Assembly (NCBI GenBank): GCA_020057885.1
Contig: JAGVEX010000006.1
Coordinates: forward strand, 23,850-87,849
Direction of reading: 5' to 3'
From: a bacterium
GTDB taxonomy: Bacteria > Patescibacteriota > Patescibacteriia > Veblenbacterales > UBA10138
Length of the DNA stretch: 64,000 nt
A model generated the notes under the pieces. It was not told where the DNA came from and did no database searches. It saw only the letters and a program-made list of their open reading frames with translations. A program made the position numbers and the translations under genes. Positions 11,012-43,454 of this stretch are shown in pieces. Positions within the stretch are counted from its first letter, which is position 1; each line of letters begins with the position of its first letter.

Positions 11012-11202
11012 GAGCTCTGCTCGCGTAATCTGCGGGAAGAGCTCTGGTTTTGTTTAGGGGACGAGAAGGGCGCGAGAGAAAGCGAGCGAGCATAGCTTTC
11101 GGTGCGCAGCGCCCAGGTGCCCGAGTCGGAGCGAGGGAGAGTCCCTGCCTACCGGATTTCGGCGAGCTCAATCGAGTCGCAGGCAGGCATCCACACCCAC
11201 CA
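11012..11202. repeat. GC-rich 176-nt insert followed by a 15-nt perfect direct repeat (CATCCACACCCACCA) of the tRNA-Ile 3' end
   Basis: The 15-mer occurs at 10997-11011 and again at 11188-11202; the insert holds the palindrome CCTGCCT..AGGCAGG and a 50-nt core shared with 43326-43384. Confidence 0.55.
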
Positions 11203-11390
11203 CTCGACTCGCTTCACGTTTCGCGCTGAGCTCAACATTGAAGCCTCGCTCGTGGTAAACCAAAAAGCGAGGCGAGTGCCCTGAGTTAATCGAAGGGCAA
11301 CAAAATGATTTAATATGACCCACAGGGTCGTTTTTTATTGTTTTGAAAAAAGTGTTAGAATTAAGGTAGTTAATTATTAAATAAACATTT

Positions 11391-12956
11391 ATGATAACCG
11401 ATCAATTGCGGGATTATGTTAAACAGCAACTTGCTTTGGGTGTTACCAAGGATGATGTTAAAGCCAGACTTGTGGCTCGCGGCTGGGTTCAAAATGATAT
11501 TGAAGCTGTTTTAGCTCCCTCTGTTCAAGGTACGGCCCCATCTCAACCTAGTGTACAATCACAACCATTATCACCGTTTCAAGCTTTAGCACAACAACCA
11601 AATCCCGAAGCTAATACACAGCCAACTGTGTCTACTCAGCAGGTTTCACCGCTTAAGCCAGTTTCGACTCCTACTGTTATGCCACAAGTTTCTTTGCAGG
11701 CGGCTATGAGCGCTTCGCCTACTTTTGCACAAAATTCTAAGTCTAGTAAAAAAATATGGCTAGCAGCTGGTTTGGCAGTGGTGGTTTTATTATTAGCCGG
11801 TGGAGCGTGGGCTTATTATACTTATTATTTGCAGGCACCAGAAAGAGTTTTAGTAAAAATGCTCGATAAATTAGCCGAGGTGAAGTCGAGCGAATATTCA
11901 GGTGAAATAAAAATTGAAACAGATTTTAGTAAATATAATTCTTATTCGCTTTTACCTTCCAATAATAAAGATAATCAGGCTCAAACTGGAAAATTAACAA
12001 TTAAGTTTAATGGTATTTCAGAAACGCAAGTACAGGATTTAAATGATTTAAAAATGGCTGCCTCAATTACAGCTGTTCCAGAAAATATGGCCGAGCTTAA
12101 TAGTAATTTAGGTATTGAACTTAGGATGTTGGGTAAAATTATGTTTATTAAATTAACCGAAGTTCCTAACTTAGGGTTAGTTGATTTGAGTACCATTAAA
12201 GATCAGTGGATAAGATTTGATTTTGATGCTATGGCCAAACAATTTGGTGCGGCAGAAAAAGTTCAAGAGTTTGAAACACAACAGAAAGCAGTTTTAGATA
12301 AATTTTCCCAGTTGCGCCAAGCCGTTATAACTTCTGGTTTATTTAAGGTAGCCGAAAAACTATCAGGGGAGACAATCGATGGCGTTTCTACCTATCATTA
12401 TAAAATTATTTTAGATAAAGATGGTTTGCAAAATTTCTTCACCCAAGTTAATAAAATTATTAATGAATCCGAACTTACCACAGATCAACAAACTGAGCTT
12501 GAGACTAATTTAAGCAAGTTAGCGAGCTTACCGGCAGGAGAAATTTGGATTGGTAAAAAGGATTATTTACCCCGTAAAATTTATTTTGAAAATACTACGC
12601 CAGCCGATGAATCAACTTCTTCCACCAAAATCACCGTTACTTATTTTATGTCCAAATTTAATGAGCCAGTGCAGGTTGATATTCCAGAACAATCAAAATC
12701 AATTGAGGAGCTTGTTGCTGGTATAATGGGTGATTTAAATACGGAGTCCAATATTCCTACACCAGATTTAAACAAAGATTCAGATAATGACGGTTTGTCA
12801 GATTATCTGGAAAGTTATTATGGCACTAATCCTAACAATCCAGATACAGATGGTGATGGCTACAAAGATGGCGATGAAGTTAAAAATGGATATAATCCTA
12901 ATGGTTCGGGTAAGGAAATTTTACCGCCACCCCAGCCCGCTACTCTTCCTGAATGA
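11391..12956 (+). CDS. Hypothetical membrane-anchored surface protein with C-terminal Asp-rich calcium-binding-like repeats
   Basis: Pro/Gln-rich N-terminus, one TM helix (IWLAAGLAVVVLLLAGGAWAYY), C-terminal DSDNDGLSDY..NPDTDGDGYKDGDE (thrombospondin-type-3-like DxDxDG). Confidence 0.6.
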   Translation: MITDQLRDYVKQQLALGVTKDDVKARLVARGWVQNDIEAVLAPSVQGTAPSQPSVQSQPLSPFQALAQQPNPEANTQPTVSTQQVSPLKPVSTPTVMPQVSLQAAMSASPTFAQNSKSSKKIWLAAGLAVVVLLLAGGAWAYYTYYLQAPERVLVKMLDKLAEVKSSEYSGEIKIETDFSKYNSYSLLPSNNKDNQAQTGKLTIKFNGISETQVQDLNDLKMAASITAVPENMAELNSNLGIELRMLGKIMFIKLTEVPNLGLVDLSTIKDQWIRFDFDAMAKQFGAAEKVQEFETQQKAVLDKFSQLRQAVITSGLFKVAEKLSGETIDGVSTYHYKIILDKDGLQNFFTQVNKIINESELTTDQQTELETNLSKLASLPAGEIWIGKKDYLPRKIYFENTTPADESTSSTKITVTYFMSKFNEPVQVDIPEQSKSIEELVAGIMGDLNTESNIPTPDLNKDSDNDGLSDYLESYYGTNPNNPDTDGDGYKDGDEVKNGYNPNGSGKEILPPPQPATLPE

Positions 12957-12990
12957 AATAATTAAGTAGATTTCACTAAAAATAAACATT

Positions 12991-13018
12991 AAAATCCGCC
13001 TCTTGGGGGCGGATTTTA
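12991..13018. terminator. Bidirectional terminator hairpin between convergent genes
   Basis: AAAATCCGCCTCTTGGGGGCGGATTTTAG. Confidence 0.5.
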
Positions 13019-13465
13019 GTTTATATTCCAACTGATTATTCTTTCGTTTTCATGTTTACCATGCTGGAATTGTATATTTATTATTTTTTTACCTTTTATT
13101 TTTAATTTATCTGCCCATTCAATAGCGACTATAGTAGAGGGTTCGTTTAAATGATCATTTAAGCCTATTTTTGAAAATTCAATTCTTGGTAGGCGGTAAC
13201 AATCCACATGTACCAATTGTTTAATGCGGCCATGTTTAACAGTATATACTTTCATTAGCACAAAAGTCGGACTGGTGATTGTTTGTTTAACACCGAGCCT
13301 TTTAGCTAACCCTTTAAGAAAAGTGGTTTTGCCCCCACCTAAATTGCCATTAAGTGTTAGTATTTCCCCACCTCTTAATTGTTGGGCAATTTTTTGTCCC
13401 AACCTTTCAGTTTCTTGCGTACTGTGGGAGATGATTTTATTCTTGATTCTTGATTCTTGATTCAT
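13016..13465 (-). CDS. tsaE: tRNA threonylcarbamoyladenosine biosynthesis protein TsaE (P-loop ATPase)
   Basis: LKGGEILTLNGNLGGGKTTFLKGLAKRLGV...ITSPTFVLMKVY...VHVDCYRL; start chosen at MNQES, while the ORF track begins further upstream. Confidence 0.8.
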   Translation of the reverse strand: MNQESRIKNKIISHSTQETERLGQKIAQQLRGGEILTLNGNLGGGKTTFLKGLAKRLGVKQTITSPTFVLMKVYTVKHGRIKQLVHVDCYRLPRIEFSKIGLNDHLNEPSTIVAIEWADKLKIKGKKIINIQFQHGKHENERIISWNIN

Positions 13466-13475
13466 AATTCTTGTT

Positions 13476-14537
13476 TTAATTCCACAGTTCCCAATTAGCA
13501 TTGGCTTGTAGTTTTTGCCAACTTTTAATAAGTTTATTCGGCTTGAAATTTTTAATCTTTATGGCCGCCGCTAGGGCAATCATGGCAGCATTGTCACCAG
13601 TAAAACTTAATTCCGGAAAGAATAATTTTACATTTGGCATATCTATTTTAACTTGTTTAGTGAGTTCTTGGCGCAAAGCTTGGTTGGCAGAAACCCCGCC
13701 GCTTACTATTATACTGCGCGCTTTATATTGTTTAGCCGCCCGTAAAGTTTTATTTATTAAAACATCTAAACTAGCCTGTTGAAACGAAGCGCAAATATCA
13801 GCCTTTAGTTTAGTTGTAATTTGCGCGGTTTGGTATTTTTGCAAAGTGTAAAGTACGGCTGTTTTAAGTCCAGAAAAACTAAAATTATAATCATTATTTT
13901 TTAACAGTGGTCGGGGAAAAGTAAAGGCCTGTTTATTGCCTTGTAAAGCTAGTTTGGCAACTTGTGGCCCGCCGGGATATGGCAGTTTTAACATTTTAGC
14001 TACCTTGTCAAAAGCTTCACCGGCGGCGTCATCTAAAGTTTTGCCTAAAAATTTGCGTTGCCCCAATGAACGCATTAAATAAAGTTCAGTATGTCCGCCT
14101 GAAATTACCAAAGCTACTGCTGGCCAAGTAGATGCTTTGGAGACTAGTGGCCAATTGGTTGGCGAGAGAAACGGACTAACCAAGTGTCCCTCGATATGAT
14201 TTATGCCAAGCAGAGGCTTGTGCCACGCCGCCGCCAGGGTTTTAGCAGTTTCTACACCTACTTGTAGTGCCGTAATAAGCCCCGGGCCAGAGGTTACAGC
14301 CATAAGATCAATCTGTGACGGTTTAACTTTTGCCTGGTTAAGCGCGTCGTGGAGTAGGGGAACAATAGTTTCATTGTGACGTCTGGCTGCTAACTCCGGT
14401 ACCACTCCGCCCAAACGAGCGTGCAATTTGGTTTGTGAAGAAATAATAATTGATTCAATTTTAAGCTTGCCCCTGTTCAGGTTTAATAAAGCAAGTGAGG
14501 TTTCGTCGCAAGAGGTTTCAATACCAAGTATTCGCAT
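13476..14537 (-). CDS. tsaD: tRNA N6-adenosine threonylcarbamoyltransferase TsaD (Kae1/YgjD family)
   Basis: MRILGIETSCDETSLALL...GINHIEGH...ISGGHTEL...SGGVSANQ; metal-binding His pair conserved. Confidence 0.9.
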   Translation of the reverse strand: MRILGIETSCDETSLALLNLNRGKLKIESIIISSQTKLHARLGGVVPELAARRHNETIVPLLHDALNQAKVKPSQIDLMAVTSGPGLITALQVGVETAKTLAAAWHKPLLGINHIEGHLVSPFLSPTNWPLVSKASTWPAVALVISGGHTELYLMRSLGQRKFLGKTLDDAAGEAFDKVAKMLKLPYPGGPQVAKLALQGNKQAFTFPRPLLKNNDYNFSFSGLKTAVLYTLQKYQTAQITTKLKADICASFQQASLDVLINKTLRAAKQYKARSIIVSGGVSANQALRQELTKQVKIDMPNVKLFFPELSFTGDNAAMIALAAAIKIKNFKPNKLIKSWQKLQANANWELWN

Positions 14538-14668
14538 ATAGTTTATCAATAATGAAAATTTGAGCTTTAGCTTATTTAGCTTATCAAGTTAACTGATTTT
14601 TTGCTATACTAGGGTCGTTTTATAAAATTTATTTTATAAGTACAATTTTTTCTTTTTTATCCCAACCC

Positions 14669-14697
14669 TTGACAGAATTATACTATAGTGCTATACT
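14669..14697 (+). promoter_or_regulatory. Sigma70-like promoter TTGACA-17-TATACT
   Basis: Perfect hexamers 27 nt upstream of the 14724 ORF. Confidence 0.4.
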
Positions 14698-14723
14698 GAT
14701 TTGTTCTTAAATGAACGTTATTT

Positions 14724-16037
14724 ATGAAACTATATTTAACTAAGAAATTATGTTTAATAGGTGTTTTTACCATCCTAATGTTGGGTTGGCCTAGTTTTGT
14801 TTGGGCGGATGAATTAATAATAAACAGAATGACTGTTGAGGAAGTTAAGCCTGAAATAGGAATTAAAGTATCTGGAATTATAATGAAAATTAGTTGGTTT
14901 ACAAACAAGGAGGCGGATGGAAGAGTTAATTATGGTCCTAATAGTGGTTATGGCTACAACGTTGGTTCTTCCATAGTAGGTTTGTATCATGAGGTTACAT
15001 TGGCTGGCCTCAAAGGCGAAACTGTTTATCATTTTAAAATTACTTCTAAAGCCACTACTGGCCAACTAATGCAATCTTTTGATCAAACCTTTAAAACACC
15101 TAAATTTACAGATATAGGGGATCCTCCAATTATTTCTGATGTTAGAGTTTCTTATGTCCGCGGAACATATTTTTTAGTAACCTGGTATACAGATAAACCC
15201 ACTGATGCTGCGGTGGAATATGCCACTGAGCCAACCTTAGCACGTACAAGCCGGTCTGGTGGTTCTCGCAATGTTACAACTCATGAAGTACTGGTTCGTA
15301 GTTTAAAATTAAATACTACTTATTATTTCCGCGTGCGCTCAATTGATAATAATGGTAATAAACAAGTGCGTGGCGGTTTTAAAGTTACTACCGCTTCCAG
15401 TAATTCAGCGGAAAAAGAACCGTTGGCCATTAGTCAGATTTCTCCGATTTCGTGGCCCGATCCTCTTATTACTGATACAGCTATAACTTTCCGTTGGCAC
15501 ACTAATCATCCCACTCGTGGTCGTGTGGAGATTGCTCGACAAAAAGTGGCTGAAACTGGATTTTTGGAAACTGAACATGAACTTACTGTAAAAAATCTTA
15601 AGCCAAATACAACTTATGTGGCTAAAATTTATGCTGATACAGTGTGGCGTTTAAGCGCCCAGACTGGCGAAATAACTCTAATGACTTCTACGACTTATGT
15701 GCCAACAGCACCATTGCCTGATTATTCTGGTCGGGTAGCAGGTGATGCAACTTGTGTAAATTATAGTGCTTATGGTATTACTTGCCGTGATTTGGCAGCT
15801 GAGCGTAAAGCCGCTACAGAAATAAAGGATGCACTTTATAAGAAATATCGTGGGCGTACACCCAGTGGTGCGGCTCGCAATTGGTTTACTCTAGTACGCG
15901 CTCGTGCTTATGGCGGTTATCCAATTAATGCCATTGTGCAAACCGTAAGGTTTGGAGGCAAAACCGTTCACCCCTCTATTCCTTGGAGTAGCTGGAAAAA
16001 TTCTAAGGATTACAAGACTTATATAAATAAAAATTAA
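14724..16037 (+). CDS. Secreted protein with three Fn3-like (purple-acid-phosphatase N-terminal type) repeats and a C-terminal domain
   Basis: Signal peptide; three repeats of the pattern W(F/Y)T(N/D)KP..G.VEY....L......T.HEV.L.GLKPNTTY.F.V. Confidence 0.55.
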   Translation: MKLYLTKKLCLIGVFTILMLGWPSFVWADELIINRMTVEEVKPEIGIKVSGIIMKISWFTNKEADGRVNYGPNSGYGYNVGSSIVGLYHEVTLAGLKGETVYHFKITSKATTGQLMQSFDQTFKTPKFTDIGDPPIISDVRVSYVRGTYFLVTWYTDKPTDAAVEYATEPTLARTSRSGGSRNVTTHEVLVRSLKLNTTYYFRVRSIDNNGNKQVRGGFKVTTASSNSAEKEPLAISQISPISWPDPLITDTAITFRWHTNHPTRGRVEIARQKVAETGFLETEHELTVKNLKPNTTYVAKIYADTVWRLSAQTGEITLMTSTTYVPTAPLPDYSGRVAGDATCVNYSAYGITCRDLAAERKAATEIKDALYKKYRGRTPSGAARNWFTLVRARAYGGYPINAIVQTVRFGGKTVHPSIPWSSWKNSKDYKTYINKN

Positions 16038-16062
16038 TTTTTAAAATTAGAATGTATATTTA

Positions 16063-16096
16063 AAAATCACCCCCGCCATGGCGAGGGTGATTTTAG
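16063..16096. terminator. Bidirectional terminator hairpin
   Basis: AAAATCACCCCCGCC-atg-GCGAGGGTGATTTTAG; same sequence family as 5274-5307. Confidence 0.5.
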
Positions 16097-16111
16097 TTTT
16101 TAGCACAAGTA

Positions 16112-17206
16112 TTAATTAAGAGAACGTTCGCCTAAAATAGCGTTTAAATATATTTCCGTACCATTACGTAGGATTTTTAATTTTATCTCTTGGTTTGCTT
16201 GGTAACGGGAAATAATATTAGATAATGAATTTTGTATAGTTGGTTTTTCGCCATTAATATCTAGAATAATATCTCCCAGTTTTATACCAGATTTATCAGC
16301 TGGACCATCGGGCAATACCCCAGGTTCTCCCTCGCTAGTTTTGATTAATACGTAAGCGCCTTGGTTGTAAGGTAGATTGTAAGCTCGCGCTACAGTGCGA
16401 TTAAGCATTACATAGCGCACGCCCAAAAAGGCTCGCGTTAATTTTCCAGTTTTACGGAAAATTTGTAAAGCTTGTTTGGCGCGATTAATTGGAATAGCAA
16501 AACCTAAGGCTTCACCCGAACGATTAATAGCCGTATTAATACCAACTACTTCACCGCGCAAGTTAATTAATGGCCCGCCTGAATTACCTGGATTAATAGA
16601 GGCATCGGTTTGAATAGTGCCCTCGAGAGTCTCCGTTATGCCACCACCCGAGGCAGTAATGGTGCGGCCAATACCAGATATAATACCGCGCGTTAAAGTA
16701 TTGCGAAATTCGGCGAGCACATTGCCAATCGCTAAAGCGGTTTGGCCAATGCGTATTTTATCAGAATCACCAAGCTTAGCAGGTTTGAAGCCACTGCCTT
16801 CAACTTTTACAATAGCAACATCAAATAAAGGGTCGCGTGCCAACACCGAGGCCGTATATTCTTTGCCATCGCTTGTCATGACAGTGTAGTCAACATTATC
16901 GTTAGCAACTACATGTTTATTGGTAATAATATAACCATCAGTGGAAACAAAGAATCCAGTACCGCCGCCAGTATCCTGCTTAGAAACTCCACCGACCAAG
17001 TTGGCCACCTCTTCGCTGATAATTATACTAACTACCGAAGGTAGGGTATTTTCATAAGCGCGAATTACGGCCTCTTCTTCGGGCACGGTAATATTTTGTT
17101 GAACAGCAGTTGGTTTTGTTATAGTTTTAGTAGTACCTACACTAGCCGCTAAAGCCAATTGAGGTATTAAAGTAACTATTAATAAGAGAGAAAAGTATTT
17201 TTTCAT
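16112..17206 (-). CDS. htrA: Periplasmic serine endoprotease HtrA/DegP family (trypsin domain plus PDZ)
   Basis: GTGFFVSTDGYIITNKHVV (His), D in DPLFDVAIVKV, GNSGGPLINLRGEVVGINTA (Ser), C-terminal PDZ-like GIKLGDIILDINGEKP. Confidence 0.85.
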   Translation of the reverse strand: MKKYFSLLLIVTLIPQLALAASVGTTKTITKPTAVQQNITVPEEEAVIRAYENTLPSVVSIIISEEVANLVGGVSKQDTGGGTGFFVSTDGYIITNKHVVANDNVDYTVMTSDGKEYTASVLARDPLFDVAIVKVEGSGFKPAKLGDSDKIRIGQTALAIGNVLAEFRNTLTRGIISGIGRTITASGGGITETLEGTIQTDASINPGNSGGPLINLRGEVVGINTAINRSGEALGFAIPINRAKQALQIFRKTGKLTRAFLGVRYVMLNRTVARAYNLPYNQGAYVLIKTSEGEPGVLPDGPADKSGIKLGDIILDINGEKPTIQNSLSNIISRYQANQEIKLKILRNGTEIYLNAILGERSLN

Positions 17207-17260
17207 AAATTAAAAATTAATTATTACATTATAAGTAATACGTAAATGTAGTTATATTTC

Positions 17261-18598: not shown

Positions 18599-18730
18599 AC
18601 ATTTTTATTATATCAAAAAATACCAATTTGTGGTGGTGTATGATATTTGGACTATTGACTGATTAATTATTTGGATGTAAGGTGTGGCAAAAGGATAAGT
18701 AAATAAAAATATAAATAAAAAGGAATTAAC

Positions 18731-19369: not shown

Positions 19370-19478
19370 TATTAATATCTTTACACGAAAGGCTTTACTA
19401 CTTAAAGGTAAAGCCTTTTTAATTTGGTGGGGGTGCTTTAAACGAGTGGGGGTTAGAGCATTGTTATAGTCAACAGAA

Positions 19479-20456: not shown

Positions 20457-20457
20457 A

Positions 20458-20697: not shown

Positions 20698-20742
20698 AAT
20701 TTAATTATATCACCAAACTAAAAAACCACCCTCACCAGGTGG

Positions 20743-20960
20743 CTCTAGAATTTTTAGCCAAGCATGCCCCGTACCGTCCGCCCGTGGCGGATTGGTACGT
20801 GAGTGGGAGTGAGGTGACTGTCCGCCGTAGTTTTAGCGAAGGAGGAGAACCCCTAGTTCTAGAACTTAGGGAGTGGTGGAAGCTGGGGAAGATGGTTAAA
20901 GAGGGGCAACTTAGCCCTATAGATGTTATATAGACCCTAGGTTGAGGTACTGCCAAGAGG
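20743..20960 (-). ncRNA. Candidate structured ncRNA or structured 3' UTR (GC-rich island), terminated by the hairpin at 20720-20742
   Basis: About 220-nt GC-rich segment with multiple stable helices (for example GTACCGTCCGCC-cgt-GGCGGATTGGTAC) between two AT-rich genes; the ORFs predicted here overlap on both strands. Confidence 0.25.
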
Positions 20961-21740: not shown

Positions 21741-21768
21741 AAACAAAAAACCACCCTCATCAGGTGGT
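21741..21768 (-). terminator. Rho-independent terminator after tRNA-Glu (minus strand)
   Basis: Minus-strand CCACCTGATGAGGGTGG followed by TTTTTTGTTTT. Confidence 0.5.
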
Positions 21769-21777
21769 TGAAAGTGT

Positions 21778-21852
21778 TGGTAGCCCCACCGGGAATCGAA
21801 CCCGAATTCCCACATTGAAAGCGTGGTGTCCTAACCATTAGACGATGGGGCC
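21778..21852 (-). tRNA. tRNA-Glu (anticodon TTC) with encoded CCA
   Basis: Minus-strand GGCCCCATCGTCTAATGGTTAGGACACCACGCTTTCAATGTGGGAATTCGGGTTCGATTCCCGGTGGGGCTACCA; anticodon loop CTTTCAA; Glu-type D-loop. Confidence 0.85.
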
Positions 21853-21858: not shown

Positions 21859-21975
21859 TGGTGGGCCGGTTAAAAAGCGTGGTGCTTGCCCTGTACTTCT
21901 GCCTCAGCGGATAGTGTTGTACCCTAACCATTACCCGTCTCCGCTTGAAGCTACGACGGGCAGGGACGATTGGGC
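21859..21975 (-). other. tRNA-like remnant or unresolved structured RNA upstream of tRNA-Glu
   Basis: Minus strand shares TAATGGTTAGG and CACCACGCTTT blocks with tRNA-Glu and ends GGCCCACCA 6 nt before tRNA-Glu, but no complete cloverleaf could be folded by eye. Confidence 0.2.
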
Positions 21976-22049
21976 CACAGTGTTGCTTATTGTAGTGTGA
22001 TATAAATTTTACGTCAAGGTGTACACTTGGTATACTAATTATATCATTT

Positions 22050-28568: not shown

Positions 28569-28726
28569 TGATTAATATAACCCCGCGGCCGTGGGGTGGC
28601 TGGAATCGGGAAGGTAAACACAGAACACAAACTGGGCAAGAGCCCAGTTTGTGTTATTTGCCCTGAGGGCTATTTTTTGGTAGAGTATTGTTTGCTATAA
28701 TCTACTATAATAAATATAAGTGGCCT

Positions 28727-28823
28727 GGTAGCTCATCACTCCGCGAGACCTAGCGTAGCTACGGCAAGCAGTAAGGCAGAGGTCTGTCCCGCTACGCGGG
28801 ATCTGGCGTAGCCATGACAAAAC
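28727..28823. repeat. Two tandem units (type A then type B) of a roughly 45-nt two-hairpin repeat, upstream of the GIY-YIG ORF
   Basis: U1 tcactccgcgagacc-TAGCgtaGCTA-cggcaa; U2 ggtctgtcccgctacgcgggatc-TGGCgtaGCCA-tgacaaaac; related units occur at 29166-29265. Confidence 0.6.
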
Positions 28824-28831
28824 TATTGTTT

Positions 28832-29086
28832 ATGAAGTATTACGTCTACATTTTAGTTAGTCTGGCAAATGATGATATTTATGTAGGTAGTACAGCCGAT
28901 GTTCAAGTTCGCCTTCACTTACATAATCAAGGTAAGGTAAAATCTACTAAAGGATATCGCCCTTGGCGTTTATTGGAGTATTATGAGTATATAACACGTG
29001 CTGAAGCAGTTAAAGCTGAACGGTTTTATAAATCTCATCACCAAAAAGAAATATTAAAAAATAAATATGGCCATGTGGTGAAGTAG
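28832..29086 (+). CDS. GIY-YIG nuclease family protein (small standalone, UPF0213/YhbQ-like)
   Basis: MKYYVYILVSLANDDIYVGSTADVQVRLHLHNQGK...RPW.L: GIY-YIG motifs; the ORF 3' end (last 18 nt including the stop) overlaps the 5' end of tRNA-Cys; the ORF track starts at 28814. Confidence 0.7.
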   Translation: MKYYVYILVSLANDDIYVGSTADVQVRLHLHNQGKVKSTKGYRPWRLLEYYEYITRAEAVKAERFYKSHHQKEILKNKYGHVVK

Positions 29087-29145
29087 TCTAACACGGCGGT
29101 CTGCAAAACCGCTATTCGCGGGTGCGAATCCCGCCATGGCCTCCA
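29069..29145 (+). tRNA. tRNA-Cys (anticodon GCA) with encoded CCA
   Basis: GGCCATGTGGTGAAGTAGTCTAACACGGCGGTCTGCAAAACCGCTATTCGCGGGTGCGAATCCCGCCATGGCCTCCA; acceptor GGCCATG/CATGGCC; anticodon stem GCGGT/ACCGC with loop CTGCAAA; T-arm GCGGG/CCCGC. Confidence 0.85.
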
Positions 29146-29165
29146 AGTAGTTAAAAATAATAGAT

Positions 29166-29265
29166 GGTCTGTCCCGCTACGTGGGATCTCCCGTAGGGAC
29201 GACAAAACCTCTATACATGGGTGTCTCACTCCGCGAGATCTGGCGTAGCCACGACAATTTTCTTG
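29166..29265. repeat. Two further units (type B then type A) of the two-hairpin repeat, downstream of tRNA-Cys
   Basis: U3 ggtctgtcccgctacgtgggatc-TCCCgtaGGGA-cgacaaaacc; U4 tctcactccgcgagatc-TGGCgtaGCCA-cgacaatttt; the 4-bp stem of the GTA-loop hairpin varies with compensatory changes. Confidence 0.6.
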
Positions 29266-29349
29266 TCTGACGAGGCCAGATGCCCAGGCCTCCATTACGT
29301 TACAATTGCCATCCGCCACTGGTGGGTGGTTTTATGATAAACTAATATT

Positions 29350-33646: not shown

Positions 33647-33686
33647 AATTTAAGTTAGAAAATCGTCGCCTATTTCAAACAGTGAT

Positions 33687-33956: not shown

Positions 33957-34020
33957 AGAATTATTTAAGTAATAGTGAAGAGTAAGTGTAAGAGTAAAGT
34001 ACACGGTCTTAACAAAGTTG

Positions 34021-34470: not shown

Positions 34471-34559
34471 ATTGGATTATCAGTTAAGGTGTCTTAATAA
34501 AATAAACTGAAAATAAAATTGCTATTTATCATTATATCTTTTTGAAAGGTTAAAACAAA

Positions 34560-35225: not shown

Positions 35226-35264
35226 TATATTTTCAAAAAATGAGAACACAGGGGAGAGTTACTT

Positions 35265-37280
35265 TTATTTTCTAGTATCTCCCCTTTTATTTTTTTCAGA
35301 TAATTTTTTAATTTCTGTAATCTGATCGCGCAAAGCCACGGCGTGTTCAAACTCCAAATTTTGAGCCGCCAGTTCCATTTGGTTTTCCAAATCTTTTACC
35401 AAATGCGCTAATTCTTCGCGCGGTAGTTTATTAATAGATAAATCTTTTACCAAGGATACAATTTCTGGCACCTTAGCTCCGCCTGCTAAGCGATCACTGG
35501 AAATAGTTTTAATAATGGTGCTGGGAGTAATACCATGTTTTTTATTATAATCTTGCTGTATTTTGCGGCGTCTGTCAGTTTCTGTAATAGCTTGGCGCAT
35601 TGATTTAGTAATTTTATCAGCGTACATAATAATATGCCCCTCGCTGTGCCGAGCGGCTCGGCCCATAGTTTGTATAAGAGCGGTGGCTGATCTTAAATAG
35701 CCTTCTTTATCAGCATCTAATATAGCTATTAGTGAAACTTCGGGCAGATCAAGGCCTTCACGCAATAGATTTATCCCCACTATTACGTCATATTTTCCCA
35801 AACGTAAGTCGCGTAAAATTTCCAACCTGTCAAAAGTATCAACTTCCGAATGCAGATATTGCACTTTAATACCCTCATCTTGTAAATAATCAGTCAAATC
35901 TTCAGACATGCGCTTAGTTAAAGTGGTAATTAACACGCGCTGTTTTTTAGCCACCCGTTTTTCCACCTGCGTTACCAAATCATCCACTTGATGTTTGGTT
36001 GGTTTTATTTCAATAGTTGGATCAAGTAGTCCAGTTGGCCTGATAATTTGTTCTACTATATTTTGGGATATTTGACGCTCGTAGTCCGCTGGTGTAGCAG
36101 AAACATATATTAATTGATTCATTCTTTTATTAAATTCCCCAAAGGTAAGCGGACGGTTATCAAGCGCCGCGGGCAAGCGAAAACCATAGTTAACCAATGT
36201 TTCTTTGCGCGCTCGGTCGCCTGCTGACATGCCTGTTATTTGTGGTATGGTCATATGCGATTCGTCTATAAATACCAGAGCGTCTTTGGGCAAGTAATCA
36301 ATGAGAGTGTAGGGCGGTTCGCTTTTTTGGCGGCCGTCAAAGTAGCGTGAATAATTTTCAATGCCATTGCAATAGCCAACCGTACGTAGCATTTCCAAAT
36401 CAAAGTTTGTGCGTTCGCTTAAACGTTGCGCCTCTAATAATTTTTTAGCCTTGGTAAATTTTTTGACTTCCGTAGCCAAATCTTTTTCAATTTGTTTTAA
36501 AGATGGTTCAAATCGTTCGGCTGAGGCTACGTAGTGGCTGGCTGGATATACATCAATTTGGGGGAGGGCAGTTATTACTTCACTGCTTAAGATTTCACAT
36601 TCTTCAATTCGTTCAACTTGGTCTCCGGTATAGCGTAGGCGTAAATAACGATCTAATGAATCAGCTGGAAAAATATCCACTATTTCGCCTTTGACGCGAA
36701 AAGTGCCGCGGTGAAAATCAATATCATTTCTTTTATATTGCAGGGAGGTTAATTTGCGTAGTAATTTTTGGCGCGGCCATACTTCTCCGTTTTTTATGGT
36801 TAAGCGCACACGCGCGTATTCCTCCGGACTACCCAAGCCGTAAATACAAGAAACAGAGGCCACAATAATAGTGTCACGCCGTGAAAGTATGCTTTGGGTG
36901 GCGGCGTGACGCAGGCGATCTATTTCCTCATTTATCTGAGTTTCCTTTTCTATGTAAGTATCCGAGACGGGCAAATAAGCCTCAGGCTGGTAGTAATCAT
37001 AATAAGAAACAAAATAGTGTACAGCATTTTCAGGAAAGAATTGTTTAAATTCGTTGGCAAGCTGAGCCGCCAAGGTTTTATTATGAGAAATTATTAAAGT
37101 AGGTTTTTCCAATTCGGCAATAACATTGGCCATGGTAAAAGTTTTACCAGAGCCAGTAACGCCAAGCAGGGTTTGGTGGTGTAGATTATTCTTTAGCCCT
37201 TTTATCAAATTAGCTATAGCCTGCGGCTGGTCCCCGGTGGGCTTGAAAGATGATTTTAAGATAAAGCTTGCTTTGCTCAT
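35265..37280 (-). CDS. uvrB: Excinuclease ABC subunit B
   Basis: LLGVTGSGKTFTMANVI Walker A, helicase motifs, and C-terminal UVR domain ALRDQITEIKKL. Confidence 0.95.
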   Translation of the reverse strand: MSKASFILKSSFKPTGDQPQAIANLIKGLKNNLHHQTLLGVTGSGKTFTMANVIAELEKPTLIISHNKTLAAQLANEFKQFFPENAVHYFVSYYDYYQPEAYLPVSDTYIEKETQINEEIDRLRHAATQSILSRRDTIIVASVSCIYGLGSPEEYARVRLTIKNGEVWPRQKLLRKLTSLQYKRNDIDFHRGTFRVKGEIVDIFPADSLDRYLRLRYTGDQVERIEECEILSSEVITALPQIDVYPASHYVASAERFEPSLKQIEKDLATEVKKFTKAKKLLEAQRLSERTNFDLEMLRTVGYCNGIENYSRYFDGRQKSEPPYTLIDYLPKDALVFIDESHMTIPQITGMSAGDRARKETLVNYGFRLPAALDNRPLTFGEFNKRMNQLIYVSATPADYERQISQNIVEQIIRPTGLLDPTIEIKPTKHQVDDLVTQVEKRVAKKQRVLITTLTKRMSEDLTDYLQDEGIKVQYLHSEVDTFDRLEILRDLRLGKYDVIVGINLLREGLDLPEVSLIAILDADKEGYLRSATALIQTMGRAARHSEGHIIMYADKITKSMRQAITETDRRRKIQQDYNKKHGITPSTIIKTISSDRLAGGAKVPEIVSLVKDLSINKLPREELAHLVKDLENQMELAAQNLEFEHAVALRDQITEIKKLSEKNKRGDTRK

Positions 37281-37295
37281 AAGTTTTTTATAGCT

Positions 37296-37375
37296 CGTCC
37301 CTGCCTGCCGGTAGGCAGGTCGCCCCGTATAGTCCCGCCTGTGGCAGGACTTGTTCGGGGTCGCCAGTTGGTTTG
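37296..37375. repeat. GC-rich palindromic repeat (CCCTGCCTGCCGGTAGGCAGG plus second hairpin) in the uvrB/ruvA divergent intergenic region
   Basis: CCTGCCT/AGGCAGG stem; same motif family as 11143, 43283, 43328 and 43435. Confidence 0.5.
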
Positions 37376-37779
37376 AAGGGTGATTTTAGTTTGAAATTCA
37401 TATCTTCAGTATAGACTGTATTTTAAATTAAAAAAGCCGATATCTATATTATACAGATTTCGGCTTAGACTGTTTTGATAATTGTGGCGATCTTCATGAT
37501 TTTTTAAAAATAAATGAGAAAATAAATGACCAAATTCCACTACCAGATACAAATACAAGTGGATAGGACAACGATCGATCTATCCTTTCTTTTTTTGATT
37601 TAAAGGCTACAATGTAGATCGCTACACACAAAACAAGTACAATTATTGAGATTAAAGTCCAGGAGGACATATATTACCTCATAAGTGTTTAGTTTTTTAG
37701 GAACTCTGTTAGTTATATTTACAATTTAGTTCGTAGCTTCAGCTTTGTCAATAATTTAAAAACGAATTATAATTAGCTT

Positions 37780-38346: not shown

Positions 38347-38350
38347 AATT

Positions 38351-39382
38351 ATGGAGTTAAGAAATATTACAGCCGCCGAGCTGTCCAAGTTTATATTGGA
38401 ATATCCGCCATCGGGCGGTTTATTTTTGCAAACTCCCGCTTGGGCTAAATTAGAAAATAATTCCGGCGGCCAGACTGATTTTTTAGGTTTGTATGAAGGT
38501 GATTTTTTGGTGGGAATAGCCTCGATAATTTTTCGTAAGCTACCGGGTGGTTTTAAATATATTTATATTTCACGTGGTCCGGTAGTAAAAGAAAAAAAGT
38601 GTTTAAAATTATTTTTAGAATTGTTAGTAAAATATTATAAGGACAAAGGTTTTTTGTTTTTGAGAGTTGAGCCAGTTTGGCATAGTCATGAATTACACAT
38701 AGAGAATAATGATTTTGGGGAAAAAGATTTTGGTTTTAAAAAAGTGTCCGATGTTCAGCCCCGCGCCACAGTAATTTTGGATTTGACACATCCCGAAGAA
38801 AGATTACTCTCAGCTATGCATGAAAAAACTCGTTACAACATTAGGTTGGCATTAAAAAAAGGTTTGGAAACTAGTTTGATTGGCAGAGAGGGGTTAGCTG
38901 ATTTTTGGAACTTGCTTAAAACTACAGCTGGTCGCGATGGTTTTGCCACCCATCCTAAGAGTCATTACGAGGCCTTGCTTGTTAACTTTGGCGCTGAGCC
39001 GCTAGTGCAAGGTGAGCTAGCAGTTCGTTTAGTTGAAGTGCGTTGGCAAGGCAAACTTTTAGCTAGCAATATGTTGGCTTTTTCCAACGGCGTCGTGACT
39101 TACTTGCACGGCGCTTCGTCTAATGAACACCGTGAGCTTATGCCAACTTACTTTTTGCATTGGCGCACCATACAGCAGGCCCAAGGACTTAATTTTAAAT
39201 TTTATGATTTGTGGGGTGTGGCACCAAGTGATGGCTCTAAAAGTTCTTGGCAGGGCATTACGCGTTTTAAGCTTGGTTGGGGCGGTAAGAGAGTTGAATA
39301 TTCGGGCACTTTTGATTTTCCCTATAAAAATACTACCTATTATTTATATCGTCTTGTTAATAAACTGCGCAGATTATTTTAA
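38351..39382 (+). CDS. FemAB-family peptidoglycan aminoacyltransferase
   Basis: Two GNAT-like halves; GFKYIYISRGPVV and LHGASSNEHRELMPTYFLHW resemble FemX/MurM family. Confidence 0.65.
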   Translation: MELRNITAAELSKFILEYPPSGGLFLQTPAWAKLENNSGGQTDFLGLYEGDFLVGIASIIFRKLPGGFKYIYISRGPVVKEKKCLKLFLELLVKYYKDKGFLFLRVEPVWHSHELHIENNDFGEKDFGFKKVSDVQPRATVILDLTHPEERLLSAMHEKTRYNIRLALKKGLETSLIGREGLADFWNLLKTTAGRDGFATHPKSHYEALLVNFGAEPLVQGELAVRLVEVRWQGKLLASNMLAFSNGVVTYLHGASSNEHRELMPTYFLHWRTIQQAQGLNFKFYDLWGVAPSDGSKSSWQGITRFKLGWGGKRVEYSGTFDFPYKNTTYYLYRLVNKLRRLF

Positions 39383-39391
39383 GATTTAATT

Positions 39392-40327
39392 ATGTCACCT
39401 TTAGAGCGGGCTATTTTAAGAACATTAACTTGGTTTGATATTTCTAGTTATCCATTAACTGCTTTTGAGTGTTGGCAGTATCTCTATACAGAAAGTGAAA
39501 AAATTGATAATTATAGTATTAGTCAGGTAATAAATACTCTAGAGAAATTAACAAAGGAGGGGATGATAAAAAATGAAAATGGTTTTTGGCAATTAGCTAG
39601 TTCGCCCTCGCATTTTTTTAACCGCCAACAACAAGCTCGTTGGGCGTTACCAAAAAGGAAGCGTGCCCAAAAGGGCGCCAGACTTCTTTCTTATTTACCT
39701 TTTGTACGTTTTGTTGGCTTAGCCAACACCATGGCTTTTGACGCGCCGCGGCAAGCAAATAGTGATATTGATTTTTTTATAGTTTTAGGTAGTAACAGGC
39801 TTTTTATTGGCCGTTTGTTTGTGACTTTAATAGTACACTTATTTGGCTGGCGTCGTTATGGAGAACGAGTGCACAATCGTTTATGTTTAAGCTTTTACAT
39901 TACAGAAAATAATTTAAACTTAGAACAATTTTCTAAAAAAGATGATCCATATTTGCGCTTTTGGGTAGCCAGTCTAGTGCCTTTATTTGATAGAGGCATT
40001 TATGATCGCTTGATAAAAGCAAATGCTTGGGTGACAAAGGATTTACCCAATTGGCAAAAAATTTATTCAAGTTATATAAACAAAAATAAAAAAAGTTTAC
40101 CAAGTATTATACAGCGTATTTTAGAACTATTGTTTGGCGGAGCTTGGGGAAATTGGTGTGAAAAAGTTTTTTATAAATTTCAAATGAAACATATTTTACC
40201 CTATGTGGCTGATCATTTAAATAATGGAACAACTGACGTGGTTATTTCGGAAAAAGTTGTTAAAATGCATACTAATGATCGCCGCGTAGAATTGGCAGCC
40301 GCTTTTCGCAAACGTTTGCTTGGTTAG
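39392..40327 (+). CDS. Hypothetical protein
   Basis: ORF with native composition; possible nucleotidyltransferase-like core (DIDFFIVLG), weak. Confidence 0.4.
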   Translation: MSPLERAILRTLTWFDISSYPLTAFECWQYLYTESEKIDNYSISQVINTLEKLTKEGMIKNENGFWQLASSPSHFFNRQQQARWALPKRKRAQKGARLLSYLPFVRFVGLANTMAFDAPRQANSDIDFFIVLGSNRLFIGRLFVTLIVHLFGWRRYGERVHNRLCLSFYITENNLNLEQFSKKDDPYLRFWVASLVPLFDRGIYDRLIKANAWVTKDLPNWQKIYSSYINKNKKSLPSIIQRILELLFGGAWGNWCEKVFYKFQMKHILPYVADHLNNGTTDVVISEKVVKMHTNDRRVELAAAFRKRLLG

Positions 40328-40461
40328 TAGATAAATAAAGTAGTTTGGCCCCTGTAGTTTCCTCCTACGCTCTCGTTGCACTTGAGCTCCGGCGGACAAG
40401 TAATACTAAACAAAGTATTACTCGCTCATCGAAGCTCTGGTGCTAGCCAGAGCATGGTTTG

Positions 40462-40536
40462 GCCCCCGTCGTTTAATGGATAGGACACGAGATTCCGGAT
40501 CTCGTAATAGAGGTTCGATTCCTCTCGGGGGCACCA
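40462..40536 (+). tRNA. tRNA-Arg (anticodon CCG) with encoded CCA
   Basis: GCCCCCGTCGTTTAATGGATAGGACACGAGATTCCGGATCTCGTAATAGAGGTTCGATTCCTCTCGGGGGCACCA; acceptor GCCCCCG/CGGGGGC; anticodon loop TTCCGGA. Confidence 0.85.
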
Positions 40537-40620
40537 CGTAAAACTCATTTCATTCGCCACGTGGTAAAAAGATTGGACACTCGCGTCTCGTCCCGTGACG
40601 AGTATCAGCGAGTTATACGA

Positions 40621-40642
40621 GATTCGATTCCTCTCGGGGGCA
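40621..40642 (+). repeat. 22-nt direct repeat of the tRNA-Arg T-arm/3' acceptor end, 85 nt downstream of the tRNA
   Basis: GATTCGATTCCTCTCGGGGGCA versus tRNA GGTTCGATTCCTCTCGGGGGCA; an additional 18-nt copy of the tRNA 5' end plus upstream flank sits at 40344-40360. Confidence 0.55.
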
Positions 40643-40801
40643 TAGATGATGGTAGACGGGTGAAGTAGCTTATAAAAGGTTGTAATAAAGTTGTAATATT
40701 GAAGGCTTGTTTGCTGGTTATGGTAAATTATACTATAATAAACAATATCTTATCACTTTCCCTCGAATTTTCGAGGTTAATAATTAACCCATATAATATT
40801 T

Positions 40802-43204
40802 ATGGACTTTGCCCAAGCTGTGGCTGATACTTTTATGCCCTCACACACCAACCCAGTGGTTAAATACCTGGATTTGGTTTTGGATTGGGGGTTAAAAATT
40901 TTAATAGCCTTAGTCCCCTTAACATTTTTACCGTGGACATATGAGATTTTTGAATTTAATAAACAGTTTTTGTTATTAGGCTTGGGTGTAATTTTATTGG
41001 CTGTCTGGGTAACCAAGTCAGTTATTTCGCGTGAGGCCAAGCTGGTTAAATCGCCTTTAAATTGGGTAGTTTTGGCGTTTTTGGCGGCGGCAGTATTAAG
41101 TGTGGTATTTTCAGTTGATCAAATTACTTCAATTTTAGGTTTTTACGGCAGATTTAATGGTGGCTTGGTGAGCATAGTTGGTTACCTTATATTTTATTTT
41201 TTGGTTTTACAACTAAGCCAGCGTGAAAATGCTAAGCGTCAATTTTTTGGTTATTGGCTTGGTGGAGTAGGGCTTGGTGCTTTGGTTTTATTACTGCAGA
41301 TTTTAGGAGTGCGTTTTTTTAGCTTTCCAGCTGCGCAAGCAATTAATTTCTCGCCCTTGGGTAGTTCACTGAATTCTGTTGTATTAATATTAACCGCCAG
41401 TTTACCATTAGCTTTGTTCTTTGCTAAAGATAGCCGCCAGGCATTAACGCGTTGGCTAAGTTTAGGCTTTGTTATTCTTACCTTAGTACTCGTTTTTTTG
41501 ATTGATTATCAGTTGGGTTGGATTGGATTATTAATAAGTTCAGCAGTGTGGTTAGCTCTAATATTTTGGAAAAATGAGATAGTTGGTTTTAAATGGACAA
41601 TTTTGCCTTCACTTGCCTTGCTTTTGGCGGTAGTTGGTTGGCCGTTAATTACTACTAAACTTACGCGGCTTAATGTGCCAGTAGAAGTAAACCTTTCTAT
41701 GTCAGCTAGTTGGAAAATTGCTTGGGAAAATATTAAGCTGAATCCTGTTTTAGGCACTGGGCCAGAAACATTTATTTACGGTTTTTCCAAATATAAACCA
41801 ACCAATTTTAATGACTCTGATTTTTGGGCTTTCCGTTTTGACAAAGCCTCTTCTGAATTTGCCCAAATGTTTGGTACTGTTGGTTTTTTGGGTTTGGCTG
41901 CTTATTTGTCCTTATTTATATTAGCTTTGTATTTGAGCTGGCGCTTACTAAAAAATCAGGGTAGTTCAGAATGGTATATATCGGGCGCTATTATTACCTC
42001 ATTCTTAGTTTTGTTGGTGGGAAATATATTTTATTTTTCCAATACTACGCTAGCTATGTTTATGTGGTTTATATTGGCGCTGTTGGCCTCTTGGAGTTCA
42101 AAGGGTACGCGTAGTTGGTCGCTTAAAGGTTCACCACGAATGTCTTTCTTATTCTCTTTTGGTTTGGCAGTAGTGGTTTTGTTGGCTGTTGGCGTTTGGT
42201 TTGGTATTGGCCGTTTGTGGGCGGCTGATAATGCTTATATGCAGGCGCAAATTAAGGGTAATAATGTAAATACTTTGGAGCAGGCACAGGTTGATATGAC
42301 CAAAGCGGTTAATCTTAATCCATGGCGCGATATTTATCGTATTGGTTTGGCGCAGGTTGATTTGGCCTTGGCCAACAGAGTGGCCAAACAAACAGCTGGC
42401 AAAACCGAAGCCGAACGCCAAGCACAAATTACAAAATTGCAACAGTATATTGCCGATTCAATTGCGGCTGCTAAATCGGCCACTGAATTATCCAAAGAGA
42501 GCGTGTCTAATTGGGAAGCACTTGGCTCTATTTATCGTGGTACAGTGTTATTTGCACGCGATGCCGAAAGTTGGGTAATAGATTCTTTCCAAAAAGCTAT
42601 TAAACTCGAGCCTTCTAATCCAGCACTTTATACCGAGCTTGGTAAGGCTTATTTAATTGCTGGCAATCGTCAGCAACAACAAGCCTCTGGTTCCACCACC
42701 GATGAAGCTGCTAAAGCTAAATTGGCCGGCGAAGCTACTATTAATATTAATAAGGCTATAGAACAATTCGAGTTGGCTATTAAACTTAAGAGCAATTATA
42801 CCCCAGCTCACTTTAACGAAGCGCTGGCTTATGAGTTGCAAGGCAAGATTGATCAGGCGATTGATAAACTAGAGCGCATTCGTTCTTATAATCAAACAGA
42901 TGTAGATGTGCTTTATGAGCTTGGTAGTTTGTATTATGGCAAAGCAGTGTATGATAAAGCGGCCACAGTATTTAAATCCGTTACTAGTTTAGTGCCTAAC
43001 CATGCCAATGCTCATTACGGACTTTCGTTGGTCTACCAAAAAACTGGCGTGTTAGATAAAGCAATTGAGGAAATGCAAAAAGTGTTGGATCTAAATCCTG
43101 GCAATCAGCAAATTCAACAGCAACTTGATGCTTTGAAAAAAGGCGAAACACAAAATCCGGTAACACCAACGCCGTCTACCAACACCCCAGCACCTAAAAA
43201 GTAG
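40802..43204 (+). CDS. O-antigen ligase-like (Wzy_C) polytopic membrane protein fused to C-terminal TPR repeats
   Basis: About 12 TM helices in the N-terminal 450 aa; C-terminal region with repeated TPR-like A..Y..G/A..Y.....A...F..A pattern. Confidence 0.6.
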   Translation: MDFAQAVADTFMPSHTNPVVKYLDLVLDWGLKILIALVPLTFLPWTYEIFEFNKQFLLLGLGVILLAVWVTKSVISREAKLVKSPLNWVVLAFLAAAVLSVVFSVDQITSILGFYGRFNGGLVSIVGYLIFYFLVLQLSQRENAKRQFFGYWLGGVGLGALVLLLQILGVRFFSFPAAQAINFSPLGSSLNSVVLILTASLPLALFFAKDSRQALTRWLSLGFVILTLVLVFLIDYQLGWIGLLISSAVWLALIFWKNEIVGFKWTILPSLALLLAVVGWPLITTKLTRLNVPVEVNLSMSASWKIAWENIKLNPVLGTGPETFIYGFSKYKPTNFNDSDFWAFRFDKASSEFAQMFGTVGFLGLAAYLSLFILALYLSWRLLKNQGSSEWYISGAIITSFLVLLVGNIFYFSNTTLAMFMWFILALLASWSSKGTRSWSLKGSPRMSFLFSFGLAVVVLLAVGVWFGIGRLWAADNAYMQAQIKGNNVNTLEQAQVDMTKAVNLNPWRDIYRIGLAQVDLALANRVAKQTAGKTEAERQAQITKLQQYIADSIAAAKSATELSKESVSNWEALGSIYRGTVLFARDAESWVIDSFQKAIKLEPSNPALYTELGKAYLIAGNRQQQQASGSTTDEAAKAKLAGEATININKAIEQFELAIKLKSNYTPAHFNEALAYELQGKIDQAIDKLERIRSYNQTDVDVLYELGSLYYGKAVYDKAATVFKSVTSLVPNHANAHYGLSLVYQKTGVLDKAIEEMQKVLDLNPGNQQIQQQLDALKKGETQNPVTPTPSTNTPAPKK

Positions 43205-43282
43205 CGCGGGTAACGGTTAAGAAATTTAAAAGTACCCCCAAAGCGGGGGTACTTTTGATTTAATGAAGCTCGCATGGGTTTA

Positions 43283-43454
43283 CTTGCCTGCCGATAGGGC
43301 AGGCGTTTAGTTATTTTTTTGCGGAATCCCTGCCTTGCCGGATTTCGGCGAGCCCAATCGAGTCGCAGGCAGGCACCGAAGCAATCATTTCAACTGCGAG
43401 GGCTGAACATTTATAACTTAACGGCCAAGGCTTTCCCTGCCTGCGGTAGGCAGG
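43283..43454. repeat. Three GC-rich palindromic repeat copies in one 280-nt intergenic region
   Basis: TTGCCTGCC-gatag-GGCAGGCG; CCCTGCCTTGCCGGATTTCGGCGAGCCCAATCGAGTCGCAGGCAGG (50-nt core shared with 11143-11187); CCCTGCCTGCGGTAGGCAGG. Confidence 0.55.

Follow-up and report, generated by a model that had tools for sequence, protein, structure and literature searches.

A 64,000-nucleotide (nt) stretch of contig JAGVEX010000006.1, here called the window, carries scattered copies of a short GC-rich palindrome. Its consensus is the perfect 20-nt palindrome CCTGCCTGCCGGCAGGCAGG, that is, CCTGCCTGCC/GGCAGGCAGG. Comparison with related genomes shows that the palindrome module is inserted DNA whose net length can preserve a reading frame, and the copies in the window are probably solo representatives of a DNA hairpin module that serves as the cognate repeat of a clade of GIY-YIG proteins of ~80-95 aa. 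This clade is related to the Ssn nucleases, single-domain GIY-YIG enzymes of ~94 aa (about 90-100; CDD cd10448) that were first described, together with their hairpin repeats, in 2025 (Chenal et al. 2025, PMC11893778). The best-supported reading is that the palindrome represents a new class of hairpin repeat in an Ssn-like system, for whose tRNA-cassette architecture we found no earlier description.

The palindromes of the window are inserted DNA

A first-pass annotation of the window had listed five variants of the palindrome, and all five were present (bounds as refined in Table 1). The pattern CCTGCCT-N(2-30)-AGGCAGG has four matches in the window and CCTGCCT-N(30-60)-AGGCAGG has two, and neither matched in 100 dinucleotide-preserving shuffles. 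As had been reported, the sites stand out from the background of ~40% GC, with at least 65% GC locally at each palindrome, and three copies share one spacer upstream of murE, a 283-nt interval with a Wzy/TPR open reading frame (ORF) on one side and the Mur ligase gene on the other. A repeated, hairpin-forming palindrome family is as conspicuous in this small Patescibacteria genome as the annotation had claimed. Its statement that all copies are intergenic holds for most of them, but a sixth perfect copy, absent from its list, lies within trmD (Pfam tRNA_m1G_MT, 5e-52). The total is six copies and one degenerate copy in 64 kb. Two independent Logan assemblies from run SRR6489632 are identical to the window over 7.6 kb and 9.4 kb, stretches that take in three of the noted palindrome sites and the trmD copy.

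Two copies are long forms, in which the short palindrome is split behind its central CCGG by a common 24-nt insert; the 38-nt core of the copy at 11143-11187 is 97% identical to that at 43338-43375. The insert was considered as a widespread module in its own right and rejected, with one near match among the loci fetched for comparison (L061; such loci are numbered with the prefix L) and none in viral contigs. The 19-nt variant represented by the copy at 43435-43454 also occurs at L026, L029, L186, and L199.

Table 1. Palindromes, hairpin modules, and gene remnants in the window. Slashes mark insertion or junction points, except between the two arms of a stem.
Feature	Position	Strand	Remarks
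Palindrome copy CCCTGCCTTGCCGGCAGGCAGG in trmD, in frame	7513..7534	+	encodes PCLAGRQ
Long-form palindrome	11143..11187	+	CCCTGCCTACCGG, 24-nt insert (11156-11179), CAGGCAGG
Duplicated last 15 nt of tRNA-Ile, CATCCACACCCACCA	11188..11202	+	exact match to tRNA-Ile positions 63-77
tRNA-Glu pseudo 5' copy	21874..21976	-	upstream of tRNA-Glu; split by two GC-rich modules
Hairpin modules, family TCCCGCTACGYGGGATCT..CGTAG..	28736..28823	+	upstream of the GIY-YIG ORF
Small single-domain GIY-YIG ORF, 84 aa	28832..29086	+	Pfam GIY-YIG 3.5e-15
Second old tRNA-Cys remnant	29166..29293	+	downstream of new tRNA-Cys; interrupted by three hairpin modules
Palindrome CCCTGCCTGCCGGTAGGCAGG	37299..37319	+	on the uvrB strand A/CCTGCCTACCGGCAGGCAGG/G
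Second, nested hairpin	37320..37365	+	outer stem CCCCG/CGGGG around GTCCCGCCTGTGGCAGGAC
uvrB pseudo 5' end MNFKLKSPFKPTGD, first 14 codons	37360..37401	-	severed by hairpin block
Nested GC-rich hairpins and tRNA-Arg 3' remnant	40581..40642	+	ACGAGATTC/GATTCCTCTCGGGGGCA
Degenerate, older palindrome CTTGCCTGCCGATAGGGCAGGCG	43283..43305	+	followed by T-run
Long-form palindrome	43328..43373	+	24-nt insert at 43342-43365
Palindrome CCCTGCCTGCGGTAGGCAGG	43435..43454	+	19-nt core

Three of the copies, that in trmD and two in the murE spacer, are simple, recent insertions. The trmD orthologues at L168 and L169 (87% and 78% identical) both retain the empty site TTTAAAAAT/AAAAAATCA, with the codons TTT AAA AAT/AAA AAA TCA. 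Relative to them the window gene has gained 22 nt and lost one A, a net change of +21 nt that keeps the frame, and shows no target duplication; none of the six reading frames of the palindrome contains a stop codon. The peptide PCLAGRQE is missing from all 19 aligned TrmD homologues. In the murE spacer, the long form at 43328-43373 and the copy at 43435-43454 are both absent from the relatives L251 and L252, whose MurE proteins are 97% and 87% identical to that of the window. The empty sites read GGAATC/CACCGAAGC and GGCCTTC/TGCGAAGG, respectively, and both insertions have exact junctions without target duplication. The second of these sites is itself a small hairpin, CCTTC-TGC-GAAGG, and the insertion lies at its stem-loop junction. 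The degenerate palindrome at 43283-43305 is common to the window, L251, and L252 and is absent from the more distant syntenic relative L373 (RuvA 91% identical), in which the spacer measures 81 nt. At its orthologous position in L252 (3664-3690) the sequence reads CTTGCTTGCCGACAAGCAAG; relative to the canonical palindrome, C has become T in both units of the left arm and G has become A at the matching places on the right, the sole clear compensated change that we observed.

Two further copies mark junctions at which a gene end has been duplicated or replaced, one at the 5' end of uvrB and one at the 3' end of tRNA-Ile. The palindrome at 37299-37319 sits within what was once the 5' end of uvrB and is now disrupted. 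Read along the uvrB strand, the old start, identical to the N terminus of UvrB in L373, is followed by the nested hairpin, the palindrome, and, 19 nt further on, the working uvrB gene, which starts at 37280 and encodes a different N terminus. The uvrB-ruvA spacer that holds this copy is 499 nt long in the window versus 86 nt in L373, which also lacks the second hairpin, and the GTCCCGCCTGTGGCAGGAC enclosed by that hairpin is a degenerate relative of the palindrome. Folded as DNA, the palindrome at 37299-37319 gives -8.4 kcal/mol (z -3.2) and the whole region 37294-37380 gives -19 kcal/mol (z -3.1). Gene callers could choose the dead uvrB start at 37360-37401 in error. At the second junction, the right end of the long palindrome at 11143-11187 directly abuts the 15-nt duplicate of the tRNA-Ile 3' end. 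Across solo copies in general, complementarity of the immediate flanks and target-site duplications were at chance level.

The palindrome and a GIY-YIG-tRNA cassette in other genomes and viruses

When one genome per species was scanned with the pattern CCCTGCCT-N(0-2)-CCGG-N(0-2)-AGGCAGG, the same 20- to 21-mer appeared in at least 119 species genomes. Among the matches listed were Patescibacteria, Omnitrophota, Bacteroidota, Planctomycetota, Chloroflexi, uncultured Gamma- and Deltaproteobacteria, and others, including three records not labelled as metagenome-assembled genomes (MAGs). The flanks of these genome loci are mutually unrelated. In viral contigs, a symmetric pattern retrieved 47 loci, some with multiple copies. 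All fetched loci together contain 272 copies within three mismatches of the consensus, of which 128 are perfect, with the ends CCTG...CAGG, and long open frames hold 21% of the copies versus 52% of random positions. A full-text literature search did not find the palindrome sequence in any of the papers covered. In two viral contigs (L123 8571-8680 and L151 2240-2350) the palindrome occupies the variable loop of an otherwise intact tRNA-Met, where it would form a long extra arm. Another cross-phylum hairpin, CCTCACCCC..CCCCTCTCC-loop-GGAGAGGGG..GGGGTGAGG, often adjoins or encloses the palindrome (L011, L055, L073, L076, L096, L097, L145, and L146).

The first search for a partner protein was seeded with the small GIY-YIG ORF of the window at 28832-29086; for the locus search, its alignment proved too diverse and was replaced by a narrower GIY-YIG alignment. 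Small GIY-YIG ORFs were found 12-149 nt from the palindrome in 4 of the 119 or more genome loci, and one viral locus had such an ORF at a distance of 61 nt. These loci share a layout in which the 5' part of a tRNA gene is present as an extra copy that the palindrome interrupts, followed by the GIY-YIG ORF and then by the intact tRNA gene. The palindrome is thereby placed in what is presumably the 5' leader of the ORF. The centre of some palindromes holds an insertion of 24 to ~110 nt.

The reciprocal test used metagenome loci picked solely by similarity to four palindrome-adjacent proteins, taking the best 80 of 492 relatives, which were 42-57% identical to the query except for one identical copy. 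A palindrome with at most one mismatch was present within 300 nt upstream of the GIY-YIG ORF in 49 of 75 usable loci, and a same-strand tRNA gene lay directly downstream in 56 of the 74 loci with enough downstream sequence; 44 loci had both. Palindrome density was 32 per 100 kb in these protein-selected loci, and control loci totalling 1.09 Mb gave 0.28 per 100 kb, so that the palindrome is enriched more than 100-fold beside these nuclease genes.

The junctions are precise. At 27 of the 35 that could be mapped, the tRNA sequence resumes at exactly the next base, and the base 5' of the palindrome is an A in 31 of the 35. The tRNA sequence is broken at positions 14-15 in 10 cases and 20-23 in 16 cases, which are the two ends of the D-loop, and at position 32, in the anticodon loop, in three cases. 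Where a locus lacks the palindrome, other GC-rich hairpin modules occupy loop positions of the tRNA. At L162, a viral contig, the second tRNA copy downstream of the cassette (820-1420) ends abruptly in the anticodon arm, and Rfam places a group I intron at 1182-1416, ~330 nt beyond the break-off. In a Saccharibacteria MAG (L108 4600-5250), a small GIY-YIG ORF of the same family lies within a 23S rRNA gene.

The cassette proteins are 79-95 aa long and have a single domain, with GIY-YIG as their sole Pfam match. A profile of the small GIY-YIG proteins has the UPF0213 structures 1zg2 and 1ywl as its closest solved structures, followed by SLX1. They score far below the cut-off of the NCBIfam model for group I intron endonucleases and are without the separate DNA-binding domain that accompanies GIY-YIG in homing endonucleases. 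One Ssn-type ORF from the viral contigs, flanked by NTS hairpins of the kind known from Ssn systems (see below), shares 41% identity with a cassette protein and 33% with the GIY-YIG protein of the window.

The window's own GIY-YIG ORF at 28832-29086, its only mobile-element-type nuclease gene, encodes a protein 35-38% identical to four of the five palindrome-adjacent proteins (L162, L018, L068, and L036). The 3' end of the ORF overlaps the start of a tRNA-Cys gene, and ORF and new tRNA-Cys together lie lodged inside an older tRNA-Cys (28700-29300). A block map against the tRNA-Cys of L373 places the modules at 28736-28823 in a remnant of the old gene, and each of the two old remnants has one TCCCGCTACGYGGGATCT-family module within the anticodon; at the fetched end of L373, the 3' part of the old tRNA-Cys (58 nt) is uninterrupted. 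Every tRNA gene of the window bears a scar of GC-rich hairpin modules. The first module in the tRNA-Glu pseudo-copy is 31 nt long and begins CCTGCC, and the block at 40581-40642 lies downstream of an intact tRNA-Arg, for which L373 shows the native context ..GGGCA/TAGA...

The Ssn-like reading and competing explanations

Ssn genes are flanked by hairpin repeats of 20-50 nt, termed NTS or SRM, which also occur in hundreds of copies genome-wide, and the enzymes, such as SsnA of Neisseria meningitidis, cut single-stranded DNA (ssDNA) beside the hairpin in a strand-specific manner and with sequence specificity for the flanking hairpins (PMC11893778). A member of the family would be expected to bind and cut ssDNA strand-specifically while leaving double-stranded DNA and RNA untouched, and repeat-rich genomes would be expected to encode the nuclease; mobility of NTS was only hypothesised (PMC11893778). 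The system described here resembles Ssn in combining a tiny single-domain GIY-YIG gene with a flanking hairpin repeat (in the 49 of 75 loci above) that is also scattered over the genome, in the mostly intergenic position of the repeats, and in a distribution over several phyla with enrichment in symbionts. The GIY-YIG gene of the window likewise has its own hairpin repeats on both sides. The differences are that the palindrome is unrelated to the NTS/SRM consensus, with its ATTCCCGCG...CGCGGGAAT core and oriented 5' flank (loci selected through NTS contained 3 CCTGCC-type palindromes in 1.09 Mb); that the nuclease gene is immediately followed by a tRNA gene, the 5' part of which exists in a second copy that the repeat divides; that the same 20-mer is kept across phyla; and that insertion is demonstrated by empty sites. 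Chenal et al. mention neither tRNA genes nor a CCTGCC-type palindrome, and neither Patescibacteria nor Bacteroidota (PMC11893778).

We infer that the palindrome is a target of the nuclease. Like SsnA with its NTS hairpins, the enzyme would recognise the hairpin on ssDNA and cut beside it; breaks at hairpin-forming sites, for example in tRNA genes, may then be repaired with a module at the junction, sometimes with the addition of a replacement gene end, and such repair would spread both the module and the nuclease-tRNA cassette.

Several observations weigh against this interpretation. Because the query proteins of the reciprocal test came from palindrome-adjacent loci, its figure of 65% applies to that subfamily only. 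Most copies are solo, since only about 4 of 119 palindrome-selected genome loci (at least 119 exist) have an adjacent GIY-YIG ORF, and action of the nuclease in trans is an assumption. The 64-kb window yielded no cognate nuclease gene for the palindrome, and no cassette-type GIY-YIG gene lies beside any CCTGCC palindrome in it; the GIY-YIG gene that is present is 8 kb from the nearest palindrome, and its flanking hairpins belong to a different family. The C-terminal helix motif is REKYLKSGxG in the cassette proteins and REKxIKKWxRxWK in Ssn, and the palindrome CCTGCCTGCCGGCAGGCAGG is perfectly symmetric whereas NTS (CGTCATTCCCGCG..CGCGGGAATC) is oriented. Solo copies lie in predicted hairpin loops in 26% of cases against 21%, an enrichment that is not significant (p=0.2), and a tblastn search of cultured phage records with a cassette protein gave no match.

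An extension of the Ssn-like interpretation, which we regard as speculative and rather doubtful, is that the 20-nt palindrome is a minimal form of mobile DNA, excised or copied by the Ssn-like nuclease and rejoined at stem-loop junctions, with the cassette version targeting tRNA genes. The ssDNA hairpin would be excised or copied at its base, and it would land in tRNA D-loops, small hairpins, and the centres of other palindromes, while the enzyme-hairpin pair would drive the nuclease gene and a replacement tRNA end into tRNA genes. A landing pad consisting only of universally conserved tRNA sequence would explain both the spread of the cassette across phyla and the unchanged 20-mer.

Among the alternatives, the strongest, though still an unlikely one, is that the palindromes are filler from break repair. 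Wherever a double strand breaks or a fork stalls, self-annealing hairpin DNA would be captured or copied in. Its accumulation at GIY-YIG cassettes and tRNA genes would reflect only that these are break hot-spots, and the nuclease would have no specificity for the palindrome. Such a process fits the location of palindromes exactly at the junctions of partial gene duplications, the blunt insertion junctions without duplication, the many unrelated hairpin modules in the same kinds of site, and the preponderance of solo copies. It does not account well for identical 20-nt boundaries in more than 100 independent events in many phyla, which argue that an enzyme or a template sets the ends, nor for the strong co-occurrence with one protein clade; moreover, Ssn enzymes, to which the clade is related, recognise their flanking hairpins by sequence (PMC11893778).

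The first-pass annotation had suggested either a small structured RNA family or repetitive extragenic palindromes (REP) of the kind that form bacterial interspersed mosaic elements (BIME), and neither suggestion fared well. A function at the RNA level, with the elements acting as terminators, stabilisers, processing sites, or 5' untranslated-region regulators of the murE, ruvA, and GIY-YIG mRNAs, is improbable. The hairpins are stable, the perfect copies in the window all have one common orientation, on the strand of most window ORFs, the cassette palindrome lies in the leader of its ORF, and the element at 43283-43305 is followed by a T-run and folds with -9.2 kcal/mol (z -4.3; calculated for DNA). 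However, it is the sole copy of this terminator-like form, with a T-run at 1 of 7 elements, the others having none or lying upstream of or inside genes. One copy is in coding sequence and one in a dead gene fragment, and close relatives lack the elements at the same genes. Searches of Rfam gave no match at the window elements, at the gathering threshold or at E<=5, and none at the gathering threshold at the elements of 19 cassette loci. Among 48 distinct 20-mer variants, pairing is kept in 89.8% of cells versus 90.2% in shuffled controls, and the covariation score is 0.074 versus 0.077, with one double change. The variants look like one-sided decay from one master sequence, which, with the absence of covariation, points to a DNA element rather than an RNA family. 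The annotation had named the joint absence of covariation and of further genomic copies as evidence that would count against its proposals; covariation is indeed absent, but further copies are abundant.

A classical REP/BIME mobilised by a REP-associated tyrosine transposase (RAYT, an IS200-like Y1 transposase) encoded elsewhere in the genome is very improbable. The palindromes share with REP/BIME their short, GC-rich, mostly extragenic, and clustered character (three in one spacer), and, as in REP/RAYT systems, there is a dedicated nuclease gene with its own repeats beside it, for which action on ssDNA hairpins is plausible. REP superfamilies, however, are marked by a conserved terminal tetranucleotide, GTAG or CGTC (Di Nocera 2013, PMC3733652), whereas here no terminal tag is present and GTAG occurs internally only, in the T variant. 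The palindrome sequence is common to many phyla instead of species-specific, its copy number per genome appears modest, and the partner found is a GIY-YIG nuclease and not an HUH/Y1 transposase. Pfam scans of 48 of the 55 window ORFs of at least 100 aa identified housekeeping genes and no Y1_Tnp, RAYT, or other transposase; the seven remaining ORFs are genes for SMC, S16, and KH proteins, assigned from gene calls on L170, and four ORFs nested in larger genes or in the 16S rRNA gene. Least credible of all is that the palindromes are operator sites for a conserved DNA-binding regulator, a role that suits the dimer-site shape of a perfect palindrome with a central CCGG but not the gain and loss of sites between near-identical strains, the sites inside trmD and pseudo-tRNAs, the palindromes that nest in one another and carry internal insertions, or neighbouring genes without a common function.

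Two further comparisons help to place the Ssn-like system. The literature on small GIY-YIG proteins beside tRNA genes yielded only phage T4 SegB and fungal mitochondrial cases. Like the cassettes, SegB involves a GIY-YIG gene among or beside tRNA genes, with presence/absence polymorphism and a co-conversion-like replacement of neighbouring gene ends (PMC2330249). The proteins described here differ in being of only 79-95 aa with a single domain. SegB and the rest of the Seg group are bigger, with two domains, and cleave double-stranded DNA, and we know of no palindromic repeat family that accompanies them. Rickettsia palindromic elements and the mitochondrial GC clusters or repetitive hairpin elements resemble the palindrome as GC-rich hairpin insertions in AT-rich, reduced genomes, and they likewise can land in frame in protein genes and in RNA genes. 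The element described here is only 20-22 nt long and common to several phyla, whereas Rickettsia palindromic elements are 100-150 bp long and lineage-specific; to our knowledge, neither they nor the mitochondrial elements have a partner enzyme.

Genomic setting and significance

The proteins of the window have their closest relatives in Patescibacteria MAGs. The stretch 9092-11011 contains a 16S rRNA gene and tRNA-Ile, followed by a terminator-like hairpin (11009-11048); there is no tRNA-Ala, and the window has no 23S rRNA gene, indicating that the rRNA genes are unlinked. The long palindrome at 11143-11187 is bordered on both sides by GC-rich sequence abundant in CGAG/GCGAG (11049-11142 and 11203-11300) that contains no ORF and has no Rfam match. 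The GC-rich block 11057-11290 has no similarity to the fetched loci beyond the palindrome and a 23-mer of its insert, and the relative L169 has neither the block nor tRNA-Ile. A separate repeat family, the terminator-like hairpin AAAACCACCC..GGGTGGTTTT, occurs at several gene ends (686-728, 5269-5306, 16063-16100, 20721-20753, 21743-21778, and 53889-53924), and a GC-rich intergenic block at 20751-20960 contains the hairpin GTACCGTCCGCC-CGT-GGCGGATTGGTAC.

To what has been described for Ssn nucleases and their repeats, the locus adds evidence from filled and empty sites that hairpin modules insert precisely, recently, and even in frame in an essential gene. It also adds a different class of repeat, a 20-mer kept from Patescibacteria to Bacteroidota and viral contigs, and a recurrent architecture of nuclease gene and tRNA gene with breaks in the D-loop. 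Annotation pipelines will misread the pseudo-tRNAs, pseudo gene starts, and short in-frame insertions to which the modules give rise. If the nuclease proves to be specific for the palindrome, the system would provide a new and very short recognition element for programmable ssDNA cutting, as well as a mechanism for the turnover of tRNA genes and the growth of intergenic regions in streamlined genomes.

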